Below are positions 1,276 through 45,134 of a stretch of DNA of 64,000 bases, piece by piece (position 1 is the first letter of the stretch; each line of letters begins with the position of its first letter). The DNA is from Ignavibacteriota bacterium (GTDB lineage: Bacteria > Bacteroidota > Ignavibacteria > Palsa-1295). The notes beneath the pieces are model-generated. The model did not search any database and was not told the DNA's origin. It saw nothing but the letters and a program-made list of their open reading frames with translations. The position numbers were made by a program, and so were the translations under genes. The stretch covers positions 384,001 through 448,000 of the forward strand of contig CAWBEI010000003.1 of the NCBI GenBank assembly GCA_963787835.1. Reading direction: 5' to 3'.

Positions 1276-2379
1276 TTATCGGGCAATATCAACTTTCGTT
1301 GATTGATTGACAATTCGGAGAAAGTAGGTTCCATTTTCCAGACTTGATACATCCATAGTAGTGGTCGTGCCATCGTCTGAGGCGTTCAGTCGCTCCCGGC
1401 CCATAATATCGAAAAGGTGAATCGTGCCGGGTTGACCGCCGAGAACTTGTAATTCATCCGTCGCTGGATTTGGGAAGGCTTTTATTTGATCATTCGAATT
1501 CACGGACGCGCTCACTGAGGCGGAGGGATATACTCTATATTCGAAGCTCCAAGAAAGGTATTTTCCTTCCTTTGTGTGAAAGATGAGGTAATGATGCCGA
1601 ACGCCAAGAGTATCAACCACTTGCGGCGTAAACTCGTAATTCAATATCATAGTATCTTCTTCTTTTAATGTATCCGGCAATTTCGGAAACGGATCGAACG
1701 CAAATTCGGAAAAATCGCCCGATTCGACGATTGAATCAATAATTCCGCCGCTGCAAGACCGGAGGATCACCGGGTTATCACCCTCCAGCTCCCCACCATT
1801 CTCAACAGGCAGCGAGGTTACATTATATGGCTCACCCGCATTCATCACATCATGCATCGTGTTCGTTTCTTCCTCTTGATTGAAACCTCCGATCTTATTA
1901 CCACCTCCGACGTCGATCAATGTGGATTGAACTCCATACATTGAAATATCAGGGCTGTTCCGAGCGTGAAAAATGAGATCAGCAGTCGCAGAAAAATGAC
2001 CGCCGTAATAACCGGTCAATATCAGCGTGTCATCACCCACGCGAGTCGCAGCCCAATTAGGACCCTCCGCAAAAAAACCACCATTGGATATTGTGAAAGG
2101 GTTTGACGTTCCAAGGTATTGGAAATTTACAGTATCGGAGACTGGCTTAACACTCATTGTAATGGAATCGACGGTGATGGGCACGCTTGGTATCAGGTTT
2201 ACGCCAGCAATACTGACGGATGCAGTGTCTTGATTGACACCATTGCAGATGTATCCGATATCGAGTGTGTCGTTATACGAGGCAATGAAGAGCTGTCCGG
2301 CTTGTTGCGCTTGACTTACTCCGCTCACAATCAACAGAACCACAGAAACGCTGAGTCTTTTCAAAGGTGTTTTATACAT
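1276..2379 (-). CDS. secreted T9SS type A sorting-domain protein
   Basis: Signal peptide from MYKTPLKR (ATG 2379); C-terminal AFPNPATDEL...DVSSLENGTYFLRI. Confidence 0.82.
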   Translation of the reverse strand: MYKTPLKRLSVSVVLLIVSGVSQAQQAGQLFIASYNDTLDIGYICNGVNQDTASVSIAGVNLIPSVPITVDSITMSVKPVSDTVNFQYLGTSNPFTISNGGFFAEGPNWAATRVGDDTLILTGYYGGHFSATADLIFHARNSPDISMYGVQSTLIDVGGGNKIGGFNQEEETNTMHDVMNAGEPYNVTSLPVENGGELEGDNPVILRSCSGGIIDSIVESGDFSEFAFDPFPKLPDTLKEEDTMILNYEFTPQVVDTLGVRHHYLIFHTKEGKYLSWSFEYRVYPSASVSASVNSNDQIKAFPNPATDELQVLGGQPGTIHLFDIMGRERLNASDDGTTTTMDVSSLENGTYFLRIVNQSTKVDIAR

Positions 2380-42543: not shown

Positions 42544-42756
42544 CTACGCCGACGCGTGAACGAGGGAAGGATTGGTGAAGCTAAAAGAATTCACATCGGC
42601 GCGCTTGGAGGCGTGCTCCATCGTAAGCGAAAGCAGGTTGCCGTCGCGGTCGTAATCCGCAAGTGTGTTCTCGTCAAGATCCCGCGTATCCTCCGTTCGT
42701 CCATCAGAAAAGAGAACCAATAAGGTGTCGGTATCCTGAAAGTAGCTGATTTTCAT
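42544..42756 (-). CDS. DUF2283 family protein (putative antitoxin)
   Basis: MKISY..DTDTL...DYDRDGNL.SL.MEHASK. Confidence 0.8.
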   Translation of the reverse strand: MKISYFQDTDTLLVLFSDGRTEDTRDLDENTLADYDRDGNLLSLTMEHASKRADVNSFSFTNPSLVHASA

Positions 42757-42761
42757 ATTAT

Positions 42762-43010
42762 CTATCCTTCTTTATCCGGTTTGAATCTGCGATCGAAAAA
42801 CGCATTATGAACCGTTTCTCCGTCTTCGAGTAAAACAACGCGGAGATACCTATTGTTTGCTTCGGCTATCTTGCCCCATTTTCGAATCCGTCCATCGTTT
42901 TGGATCACTTCTGATACCGGGAAATGAATGACCCGCTCGATCCATTCCTGCTTGATCCAGGCGCGGTCAGGCTCGATCCACCGGGCGAGGAAGTAGTCCG
43001 TTGCTTTCAT
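42762..43010 (-). CDS. RelE/DUF4258-like putative toxin
   Basis: Q.DGRIR.W..I......LRVVLLEDGETVHNAFFDR. Confidence 0.75.
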   Translation of the reverse strand: MKATDYFLARWIEPDRAWIKQEWIERVIHFPVSEVIQNDGRIRKWGKIAEANNRYLRVVLLEDGETVHNAFFDRRFKPDKEG

Positions 43011-43065
43011 GTGGTTAGAAAACAATTAATCCGCGACATTTGTCCTTTTCTCTAATGGATCTTAA

Positions 43066-43116: not shown

Positions 43117-43120
43117 ATAA

Positions 43121-43148
43121 TGTACACCGGGTTTTAACCCGGTGTACA
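43121..43148. repeat. REP-like palindrome
   Basis: tgtacaccgggtt-tt-aacccggtgtaca. Confidence 0.65.
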
Positions 43149-43160
43149 CAAGAGTAAATA

Positions 43161-43192
43161 AAAAAACGGGCTTGGTGCACCAAGCCCGTTTT
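43161..43192 (-). terminator. intrinsic terminator of the Cys-rich peptide unit
   Basis: aaaacgggcttggt / accaagcccgtttt with an A-tract on the left, giving a U-tract on the minus strand. Confidence 0.8.
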
Positions 43193-43249
43193 GAATTATA
43201 TCCGAGAGATCCGCGTCATCCATTTGAATCCGCGTAATCCCGGTTCTGA

Positions 43250-43438
43250 CTATTTCGTGCAGCAGCAGTCGCAGCCTTCGACGCATGGCGTGTTTGGCGA
43301 GCATTTGTCGCCGCACTTGCAATCGCAGCATGCGGATTTTGCTTTGACCGGCGCATTCGTTGCTGGAGTGTTACTGGCAAAGCTGGTTGCCGTCAACGTA
43401 AATAAAAGACCCGAGATGAAAACTAAAAGCTTCTTCAT
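43250..43438 (-). CDS. secreted Cys-rich metallothionein-like peptide (62 aa, 10 Cys)
   Basis: Sec signal MKKLLVFISGLLFTLTATSFA followed by ...CCDCKCGDKC....C...CDCCCTK. Confidence 0.78.
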   Translation of the reverse strand: MKKLLVFISGLLFTLTATSFASNTPATNAPVKAKSACCDCKCGDKCSPNTPCVEGCDCCCTK

Positions 43439-43464
43439 GTTTGTGCTTGAAAAAATTGATTTAT

Positions 43465-43518
43465 AAAAAGTGAACTGACGTTCGTGAAAGGAACGAAGAT
43501 GTTTCCCGCCGTCACTTT
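43465..43518 (-). promoter_or_regulatory. attenuator-like stem-loop overlapping the upstream stop codon
   Basis: Minus strand: AAAGUGA-CGGCG...UUCGU-loop-ACGAA-CGUCAG-U-UCACUUUUU. Confidence 0.5.
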
Positions 43519-43876
43519 AAATCCTCAACACAATGGTCCGCAATAATTCCAGGGCAGGCGGCCGGAACTCCGGCGGTAACCGGGAACGCAATAGAAAGAT
43601 ACTGTTCGATCGAATTCCAGACGGGAACTCGACCGGTGAAAAAAAGAAGGAAGGAAGAACGGACCGTGGTCTGGTTACGATCGAACCGACGGCAGCAACG
43701 TTGGTGTAATTGGTAGCAGGCTTACAGCATTGGCATCCGGTCGCGCAACAATTTTTCTCGCAGGCACAAGCTTTCTTTTCCATGCACTGACATTCTGTCG
43801 TGACCACGCCAATAGTGGAAACGCCCAGACACAGGCTAAGGATAAATGAAAAGAATTTAGAGAAATACATCCTCAT
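43517..43876 (-). CDS. HYC_CC_PP / DUF2946(CruR)-like Cys-rich leader protein
   Basis: N-terminal TM, CxC..CxC..CC..CxCC cluster, C-terminal RLPPEFRPP...VLRI*; ATG at 43876. Confidence 0.7.
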   Translation of the reverse strand: MRMYFSKFFSFILSLCLGVSTIGVVTTECQCMEKKACACEKNCCATGCQCCKPATNYTNVAAVGSIVTRPRSVLPSFFFSPVEFPSGIRSNSIFLLRSRLPPEFRPPALELLRTIVLRI

Positions 43877-44027
43877 ATTTATAAAACAAGATTGTAGCCT
43901 GGATACGTTCACGATACCCCCAATTGAGCGCCAATTCTGAAACATCACTCATGCCGAATCGTAGCCAGTATGAGGTAAAGTTCATCTAACTCTTTTCCCC
44001 AATACTCTCATATTATTTGATACGTTC

Positions 44028-45134
44028 TTGACGGGTTCGAACAACAGAGAAATTCAGGAACACCAGCCGTCCGGTGTTCGGTGGTCGCTTGCGCGAATAT
44101 CGCTCGTCAGCATGGGAGCGGTCGTCGCAATTGGCGGCATCGCGGTAGCATTGGATCATTATTCGATCATCCCGATCCATCGTATTGGAGGAGAGAATCG
44201 GCTTGTGTTTCGTCTGGATGCCCCGTTTGGCTCGGTCGATCTCCGCGCCGGCGCCGGGACTAATGATGTCGCAACTGTTGAGACGCTCGCGGAACAAGGA
44301 GACAACCACAATCCACAATGGTCATACGGCCTTAAAAATGGCTCGATAGGAATGCTCCGCATCGGTATTGGTACTGATGAAGGTATGATCGCGCAACCAC
44401 CAATCGCGATGTGGGAAACGAATTCCGGTTTTTCCCCTGCTGTTGCTTATGCGCCTCAGCCGGACTGGGGCGCGGCCTGCCCGCCGTCGTTCTTTTCATT
44501 CTCTATGCCTTCGATTCCCTCCGGACAGGGGTGGTATCCTCAAATGCGAGTGGTTTCTACCGACGCTGGCACTGTGATCGTCCCACAAGCAAAAGCCAGT
44601 ACAAGGATCACGCTTACAAAGGATCTTCCCATGGACATCGATGCCAACCTCGGCTTCGGAGAATCCACGGTGGATCTCACCGGGTTACCGATCACGAATG
44701 CTTCGATCGAAACAGGTGCTTCAAGGGTCCAAGTCTGCTGCAACGCTATGAACCCAGTGGCACTTCACAATTGCCGCGTGCGTGCCGGTATTGGCCCATG
44801 CACATTTTGTGGACTCTCTAATCTCAATGCAGATAACCTCAACTTTCATGGTGCGTTAGGCAGCTATCAACTCGGGTTTGAGGGAAAACTGGCCCATAAC
44901 ATGGATGCGATCGTCGATGTTGGCATTGGGATGTGTTCCATCACCATTCCTGCAACGGCTTGCAGGGTGCAAGTTTTCTATGAAGACGGTATATTCAGTT
45001 CATTCTCGTTCCCCGGTTTAGCCTATCGGCGTCCGGGCTATGAATCCAGCGTTGGGTTCGAACGGTCAAACAGCCCCATTCTTACGCTCCACCTTTCGAG
45101 CGGTGCCGGAAAGATCTCGGTGAACTACCATTGA
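44028..45134 (+). CDS. membrane-anchored toast-rack/LiaF-like beta-strand repeat protein
   Basis: TM near the N-terminus; repeated L..G.G...VDL.GL, V.VG.G...I.IP, LSSGAGKISV. Confidence 0.65.
   Translation: MTGSNNREIQEHQPSGVRWSLARISLVSMGAVVAIGGIAVALDHYSIIPIHRIGGENRLVFRLDAPFGSVDLRAGAGTNDVATVETLAEQGDNHNPQWSYGLKNGSIGMLRIGIGTDEGMIAQPPIAMWETNSGFSPAVAYAPQPDWGAACPPSFFSFSMPSIPSGQGWYPQMRVVSTDAGTVIVPQAKASTRITLTKDLPMDIDANLGFGESTVDLTGLPITNASIETGASRVQVCCNAMNPVALHNCRVRAGIGPCTFCGLSNLNADNLNFHGALGSYQLGFEGKLAHNMDAIVDVGIGMCSITIPATACRVQVFYEDGIFSSFSFPGLAYRRPGYESSVGFERSNSPILTLHLSSGAGKISVNYH

Follow-up and report, generated by a model that had tools for sequence, protein, structure and literature searches.

A candidate metal-sensing leader paired with a predicted exported metallothionein-like peptide in an Ignavibacteriota genus

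Experimental work has established metal-sensing leader peptides for two Proteobacterial cases, CutF (PMC9973294) and CruR (PMC9426467). CruR of Bordetella pertussis, a DUF2946 protein, is described as arresting translation at a RAPP motif three residues from its end (PMC9426467, PMC12992588); copper relieves the arrest, Rho then shuts off the importer, and the conserved spacing between the Cys motif and the prolines is reported as a functional feature (PMC9426467). CutF, from cutFOG of Rhodobacter capsulatus, is a small, exported leader that contains Cys and carries PP within 15 residues of its end, with a same-strand gene directly downstream across a gap of <100 nt, and the survey of CutF-like proteins in that paper covers Bacteroidota, with OEP, CusA/B/F, TonB and PCuAC proteins as neighbours (PMC9973294). 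Our literature searches found no mechanism for the large Bacteroidota branch of such leaders, nor any in print under the name HYC_CC_PP (NF047658). On the side of possible targets, the metallothioneins SmtA/BmtA, MymT and PmtA are small and Cys-dense, with CC and CxC motifs and no aromatic residues (PMC7558416, PMC11237414). PmtA is reported on the P. aeruginosa surface, reached by a probably non-classical route (PMC11237414), and Csp1, a Tat-exported four-helix bundle, establishes that an exported Cys-rich copper store exists (PMC7558416).

We analyzed a 64,000-nt stretch of contig CAWBEI010000003.1 (the window), in which an earlier note, made from the letters alone, had proposed a ribosome-stalling leader controlling a secreted Cys-rich peptide. 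The unit lies on the minus strand and consists of the leader ORF, the peptide ORF after a 78-nt gap and an intrinsic terminator (Table 1), the whole measuring about 760 nt including a promoter-like box and the terminator. ORF calling and a residue check bore out the leader with its N-terminal hydrophobic segment, nine-Cys cluster and proposed tail, as well as the peptide with its predicted signal and 10 Cys in its last 26 residues, and the terminator proved as strong as claimed (z = −6.35, equalled by 0 of 200 shuffles). When ATG-started ORFs of 40–130 aa were filtered for basic, hydrophobic and ≥8-Cys character, six rows (four distinct ORFs) passed among 29,412 ORFs in the genome, and two of the four were these adjacent genes. 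Several features lie close by. A second perfect 13-bp hairpin directly past the terminator (43120-43149, z = −6.46) is possibly a REP-like repeat. Two small minus-strand ORFs follow at 42544-43025, the second matching DUF2283, and the two presumably resemble a toxin–antitoxin insertion; PIN-like ORFs were seen by eye near the equivalent place in loci L055 and L056. A neighbouring gene has a T9SS sorting domain with a score barely above the cut-off, in keeping with an uncultured lineage of Bacteroidota type.

Table 1 Features of the leader–peptide unit in window coordinates.
Feature	Position	Strand	Basis
Leader ORF, 119 aa (P0001)	43517..43876	(-)	ORF call
Cys cluster of leader, Cys29-Cys51, 9 Cys; predicted metal sensor	43724..43792	(-)	
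PP codons Pro106-Pro107, 12 residues ahead of stop	43556..43561	(-)	
Terminal V-L-R-I codons and stop	43517..43531	(-)	Protein-level conservation, synonymous codon changes
Weak intergenic stem, 5' arm beginning in leader stop codon, then U5	43465..43518	(-)	
Cys-rich peptide ORF, 62 aa (P0002)	43250..43438	(-)	ORF call
Strong intrinsic terminator, 13-bp stem 43163-43192 and T-rich tail	43155..43192	(-)	
Conserved GAAC-N19-GTT box, ending 8-12 nt upstream of leader start	43885..43910	(-)	

Compared with the described systems, the leader passes the size (<150 aa), PP (no more than 15 residues from the end) and neighbour (same strand, within 1000 nt) filters used for CutF-like proteins in PMC9973294, being 119 aa long with PP at 106–107 and its neighbour 78 nt away. 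Unlike CutF, it has no DUF2946 and carries nine clustered Cys instead of one CxxxC; a stem extends from its stop codon and no SD sequence is present. The targets differ as well, a 62-aa Cys peptide here as against an oxidase or transporter for CutF, and a small Cys-rich peptide is not among the neighbour classes named in the text of that survey, whose OEP and Cus types match the paralogs described below (PMC9973294). With CruR the leader shares its position as an upstream ORF, a Cys motif kept at a set distance from a C-terminal proline motif and presumptive control of the next gene; it differs in lacking RAPP, in placing PP 12 residues from the end and in its likely output, which would be induction (PMC9426467). 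Its likeness to HYC_CC_PP comprises a hydrophobic N terminus, G-x(7)-C, a CC pair, roughly 53–55 residues from there to PP and a hydrophobic terminal motif, whereas it scores below the family cut-off and has ECQC for HYC, HYQC appearing in the G001 ortholog only.

The earlier note had placed the leader near both DUF2946 and HYC_CC_PP. Direct NCBIfam and Pfam scans of the leader returned nothing relevant, and the first kinship was not upheld, as the leader had no DUF2946 match in Pfam at E up to 10. The second was supported at profile level. The HYC_CC_PP HMM (cut-off 28 bits) matched neither P0001 nor any of eight orthologs, and TolC-type paralogs scored 18–23.5 bits against it; yet a profile of the eight orthologs (A1), searched against 1.84 billion protein representatives, gave 12 matches of which the four weakest (P0012–P0015, E 2e-4 to 1e-3) are true HYC_CC_PP members, scoring 33–42 bits on the family HMM. 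The leader falls outside formal NF047658 and DUF2946 membership, and sequence comparison makes it a divergent HYC_CC_PP/CutF-like protein that likely acts as a CutF-type element. In an Atlas search it matched unnamed clusters at 0.95–0.96 and, as a lead only, DUF8199 at 0.94 on 38% of members; the exact leader and peptide sequences are absent from the Atlas, and word-indexed homolog searches returned the self match or one ortholog and nothing further.

The pair is conserved within the genus, for which 15 genomes were compared (G000, the genome of the window, and 14 others). The leader is present in seven and the peptide in six of the other 14, and the leader and peptide were found in 0 of the 26 relatives outside the genus (40 relatives searched). 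In line with the proposed synteny, the two genes are adjacent in all six other genomes that have both (G001, G002, G006, G009, G011 and G014), with gaps of 70–95 nt, and the pair is repeated in one metagenome locus (L028). The flanks differ in G001 and G011, and the G006 intergenic region contains a G/C-rich hairpin insertion. In the seventh leader genome (G013) the leader sits at a contig end, where its last codons show a one-base frameshift with the tail readable in the other frame (L007:1855-1881), likely an assembly error. Computed on the five closest sequences, dN/dS values of about 0.16 (leader) and 0.14 (peptide) indicate purifying selection; they are rough, leader dS being near saturation. 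Contigs of related sequence span the peptide region in all four metatranscriptome runs, and two contigs join the 3' end of the leader to the peptide; since flanking DNA is also covered in two runs, this coverage proves neither transcription nor a single transcript. Both genes and the terminator are real and the pair is conserved.

Related leaders head other genes, mostly of copper type. Profile A1 detected three paralogs in the genus (E 2.5–4.2e-4 per genome), each directly upstream of a TolC/OEP gene and one with an HMA gene just upstream. A wider leader profile gave matches in 26 of 35 family genomes; since these three paralogs went into it, it is no independent test of them. The 22 non-peptide leaders of the family precede TolC-like (11), CusF-like (4) and cupredoxin-like (3) genes, a P-type ATPase, an HMBD and a DUF3347 gene, the last leader standing at a contig end; neighbour Pfam identities were checked on representatives, and the cupredoxin-like matches are below cut-off. 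The partner lies directly downstream across gaps of roughly 70–150 nt. In the phylum at large, 30 HYC_CC_PP loci lie upstream of genes for TonB receptors, CusA-type pumps and secreted HMA proteins, several of these proteins having 12–24 Cys. At L081, L083, L084, L085 and L089 an HYC_CC_PP leader is followed by a secreted HMA-domain protein with a long Cys-rich tail (12–24 Cys in the protein; four tandem repeats in L089), possibly a fused chaperone-plus-sponge counterpart of the free peptide. No homology was detected between the peptide and such a tail, the one tail compared giving an hhalign probability of 3% in the signal part only.

Within the genus, the peptide-type leader and the leader–TolC operon each occur in eight of 15 genomes. 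Exactly one of the peptide unit and the leader–TolC operon is present in 14 of 15 genomes and none has neither; G009, with 7% contamination, alone carries both. Searches of G000 by tblastn with TolC, CusF, cupredoxin, HMBD and HMA queries gave no match. On an RpsA tree the peptide label requires four changes, three of them forced by well-supported branches, and 119 of 500 shuffles need no more than that; for the TolC label three changes suffice. Because the 15 genomes are related, the three or four changes are read from a single gene tree and the label partly follows clade, this near-mutual exclusion is suggestive only.

The leader protein combines a hydrophobic segment at residues 8–26 (Kyte–Doolittle 2.07 over 19 aa), with an ambiguous cleavage site, with Cys16, the nine Cys of residues 29–51 and PP at both 101 and 106. 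Four Cys are invariant over 21 aligned leaders, HYC_CC_PP members included. Although the linker varies, the last CC lies 65–68 residues ahead of the stop codon in peptide-type leaders (n = 8), 63–75 in paralogs (n = 20) and 68–78 in HYC_CC_PP members (n = 29), and CC-to-PP averages 53–55 residues across all sets (mean 53.4 in peptide-type leaders, n = 8; 54.6 in the HYC_CC_PP set). The arrest at an RPP or RAPP motif advanced in the earlier note was not supported: none of 63 leaders has R[AG]PP (0 of 8 orthologs, 20 paralogs, 6 orphan homologs and 29 HYC_CC_PP members), so the RAPP arrest of CruR is not simply transferable, and RPP itself is found in six of eight orthologs and 0 of 20 paralogs, Q, S and K taking the place of R in orthologs. 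The PP alone is kept 12 residues before the stop in all eight peptide-type leaders and is found in 27 of 29 HYC_CC_PP members; 10 of 20 paralogs lack it. A terminal [LFYI][RLV][IL]-stop is the steadier feature by sequence, being shared by all eight orthologs, 19 of 20 paralogs and 17 of 29 HYC_CC_PP members. Left out of these tail counts were L007 and L049 (contig ends), L053 (internal stop) and L077 (mis-parsed). Synonymous differences among orthologs in the terminal L-R-I codons are consistent with conservation at the protein level. The terminal hydrophobic motif could instead serve as a degradation tag.

Downstream of this tail, the earlier note had described a stem-loop overlapping the leader stop and ending in U5, and read it as an attenuator. 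The structure is present: a 7-bp basal stem (AAAGUGA/UCACUUU) pairs 43518-43512 with 43473-43467, with U5 at 43469-43465, and in G000 further pairing is possible between the last leader codons (from 43533) and the stretch up to 43441, beside the peptide start. It is nevertheless weak, A-U rich with a long loop, with a fold z of −0.53 that 63 of 200 shuffles equal or better. A terminator scan did not call the hairpin with its U5, and because it is not terminator-like in this way the attenuator reading is weak. Stem and U-tract together are present in G000, G002 and G009. Across six close loci 90% of basal-stem cells are paired versus 24–62% when the stem is slid, with no two-sided change and with 93 of 500 shuffles pairing equally. 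A consensus fold over seven intergenic regions failed (−0.48 kcal/mol), and Rfam gave no match at threshold.

The TolC-type paralogs provide a clearer picture. Five of them share a long stem from stop codon to start codon with a consensus energy of −17.1 kcal/mol, in which 3 of 21 pairs show two-sided change and the covariation term (+0.92) is slightly unfavourable. In our folding model a ribosome at the stop codon keeps the RNA unpaired to 12 nt past the first base of that codon; at the peptide locus such a ribosome is predicted to open the stem, whereas one 12 codons upstream leaves it closed. At TolC loci the stop-positioned ribosome would cut the cost of opening the start by 2.7–9.4 kcal/mol more than one 12 codons earlier in 9 of 10 cases, a gain at the 87th–99th percentile of a background of 150 from 216 crudely called gene pairs. 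At three of the eight peptide loci (G000, G009 and L028) the model gives a corresponding gain of about 3 kcal/mol, with the remaining five not exceeding 0.5, and the peptide start site is already predicted open in seven of eight (6th–15th percentile). A start-hiding stem stands out in the TolC-type paralogs, is partial in G000 and L028, and is weak in most orthologs. The stop-to-start geometry of the family suggests that the switch sits at the stop codon, with thin evidence in the peptide subclade, and by these models a stop-proximal switch is the better hypothesis than RPP arrest acting on an attenuator. Five TolC-type leaders (L032, L034, L035, L036 and L050) end in CA[LR][FL]S[TQ][FY]RI, carry one further conserved Cys close to that end, and are followed by a stop-to-start hairpin; they offer a cleaner system for testing a switch than the peptide locus.

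Upstream of the leader, the GAAC-N19-GTT box is found in eight of nine peptide-type loci with the same spacing and an unconserved spacer sequence. We take it to resemble ECF-sigma promoters, and from its sequence it is promoter-like, or else the site of a dimeric regulator. Many paralog leaders show a GAA...CGT-like arrangement by eye, the strict pattern being found in 3 of 22 with a 17-nt spacer. In G000, 21 sigma-70-family genes exceed the TIGR02937 cut-off, and inspection of 23 of the 24 sigma matches revealed no CorE-like sigma factor with a Cys tail. The conserved box makes it probable that the unit is also under transcriptional control of its own, and the box alone could supply all regulation at that level. 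On the opposite strand, TGAAAC-N16-CGTA at 43938-43963 (+), which we assume to be a SigW-like consensus, stands ahead of a divergent gene (44028-45134) with no family match; a similar box is visible by eye in G002, G009 and L028, and the exact pattern occurs eight times in the genome, about chance level.

The peptide has a predicted Sec/SPase I signal at residues 1–21, with an S-F-A cleavage site assigned by eye and no lipobox, followed by a Pro/Ala/Thr linker and the core CC.C.C...C.....C...C.CCC. The predicted mature part of 41 aa contains 10 Cys, no F, W or Y and at most two ILVM residues; Cys makes up 38% of the core, which shows CC and CxC motifs. Six of seven peptide orthologs keep the 10 Cys in a nearly fixed pattern, and the G001 ortholog has nine Cys and two His, an odd number more readily explained by metal ligation than by five disulfides. 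Neither Pfam, NCBIfam nor the PDB gave a match to the Cys core, described metallothioneins gave none, the PDB search matched the signal peptide only, and Atlas matches were all below 0.9. Run against 301 class genomes, the peptide profile detected no Cys-rich homolog beyond the genus, and an AlphaFold model was of low confidence (pLDDT 53) and uninformative. Candidates L019 and L020, two weak matches from outside the family, and L029, L059 and L060 were rejected as homologs, the similarity being confined to the signal part. In L019, from a distant genome, a small signal-peptide ORF with a Lys/His-rich repeat body (1402-1660, minus strand, read from the opposite-strand translation) adjoins a sensor kinase. 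None of the 15 genus genomes yielded a DsbB or VKOR gene, with positive controls detected, and DSBA and Thioredoxin_4 were likewise not found in G000 (97.9% complete); a literature search returned nothing on disulfide formation in Bacteroidetes. With no DsbB or VKOR found, exported Cys would likely stay reduced and free thiols are favoured, which makes the exported metal-binding target predicted in the earlier note plausible. By sequence, the peptide is a predicted exported metal sponge of metallothionein-like type.

We propose, at about even confidence, that the leader senses metal in cis as a nascent chain and thereby turns on the predicted exported metallothionein-like peptide. The leader would be threaded through Sec while still ribosome-bound, so that with the ribosome at the last codons the Cys cluster, 65–68 residues back, would already have crossed the inner membrane. 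If the cluster then bound a soft metal, copper being the most likely, ribosome occupancy at the VLRI-stop codons would rise, either through a pause at termination or through release of an earlier pause at PP. TnaC and PepNL are precedents for arrest at termination. A ribosome held at the stop codon would then melt the stem and free the SD-less initiation region of the peptide. After export through Sec, the peptide would keep its thiols free, because no DsbB/VKOR pathway was found, and would take up several metal ions in a thiolate cluster. Initiation in Bacteroidetes is reported to be tuned by mRNA structure and upstream adenines without SD (PMC6847099).

Other explanations can be set against this cis-acting sensor. 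If the pair were an ordinary two-gene operon, the leader would be a free exported metal binder or chaperone without cis effect and control would lie only at the box; the box in eight of nine loci, the 21 sigma-70-family genes and the predicted openness of most peptide starts agree with this. We still think it unlikely, given CC-to-stop and CC-to-PP distances that are fixed over a poorly conserved linker, family leaders that stand directly upstream of their partners at short gaps, and the report that CutF and CopL have no trans action (PMC9973294). Metal-dependent arrest at RPP controlling an intrinsic attenuator would make sense of the invariant PP position in orthologs and of the stem plus U-tract in three genomes, but the missing R[AG]PP, the replacement of R in orthologs, the A-U-rich, long-looped hairpin that the terminator scan did not call and a modelled PP-positioned ribosome that falls short of the stem together render it very improbable.

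A CruR-like arrangement, in which the position of the leader ribosome protects C-rich intergenic RNA against Rho and metal alters whether transcription enters the peptide gene, remains a candidate because G000 has a Rho gene and the intergenic stretch contains more C than G in all seven loci (18 C/12 G in G000; 14/5 in G014), and CruR itself is described as operating via Rho (PMC9426467). The intergenic region is, however, short (70–95 nt) and A/T rich, its C excess may only reflect a G-poor initiation region, and the TolC-type paralogs use a start-occluding stem instead, so we rate this as distinctly unlikely. Alternatively, the leader might sense envelope redox state in place of metal, with the peptide as a thiol buffer or a disulfide-knotted secreted peptide. 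The even Cys number in its almost fixed pattern would suit disulfides, which have been proposed as important in CutF itself (bioRxiv 10.1101/2025.02.05.636593), whereas the nine-Cys ortholog, the lack of a hydrophobic core, the paralogous leaders that head copper-type genes and the search that found no DsbB, VKOR or DsbA-type genes leave this reading with a low probability.

Under the favoured cis-acting sensor, the sensor class is known from CutF and CruR, and the type of target is apparently undescribed. Our literature search, which covered few subscription journals, found no bacterial Sec-exported metallothionein, the match obtained being fungal, and no CutF-like/metallothionein pairing. 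The contrast drawn earlier between an exported peptide here and cytoplasmic metallothioneins is supported by the predicted classical Sec signal, and it is blurred by surface PmtA (PMC11237414) and Tat-exported Csp1 (PMC7558416). A broader proposal, which we regard as rather doubtful, is that HYC_CC_PP-type leaders are Bacteroidota-wide secretion-coupled metal sensors in which, in the on-state, the ribosome is held at the stop codon by a terminal [LF][RL]I and not by RAPP or polyproline, the Sec-exported metallothionein of this genus replacing a Cus-type efflux operon. In a genus in which no disulfide-forming pathway was found, the target of the leader would be a Sec-exported metallothionein-like peptide, possibly representing sequestration in place of efflux. 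The compact unit is also a handy test piece for asking where SD-independent ribosomes pause and whether PP matters.
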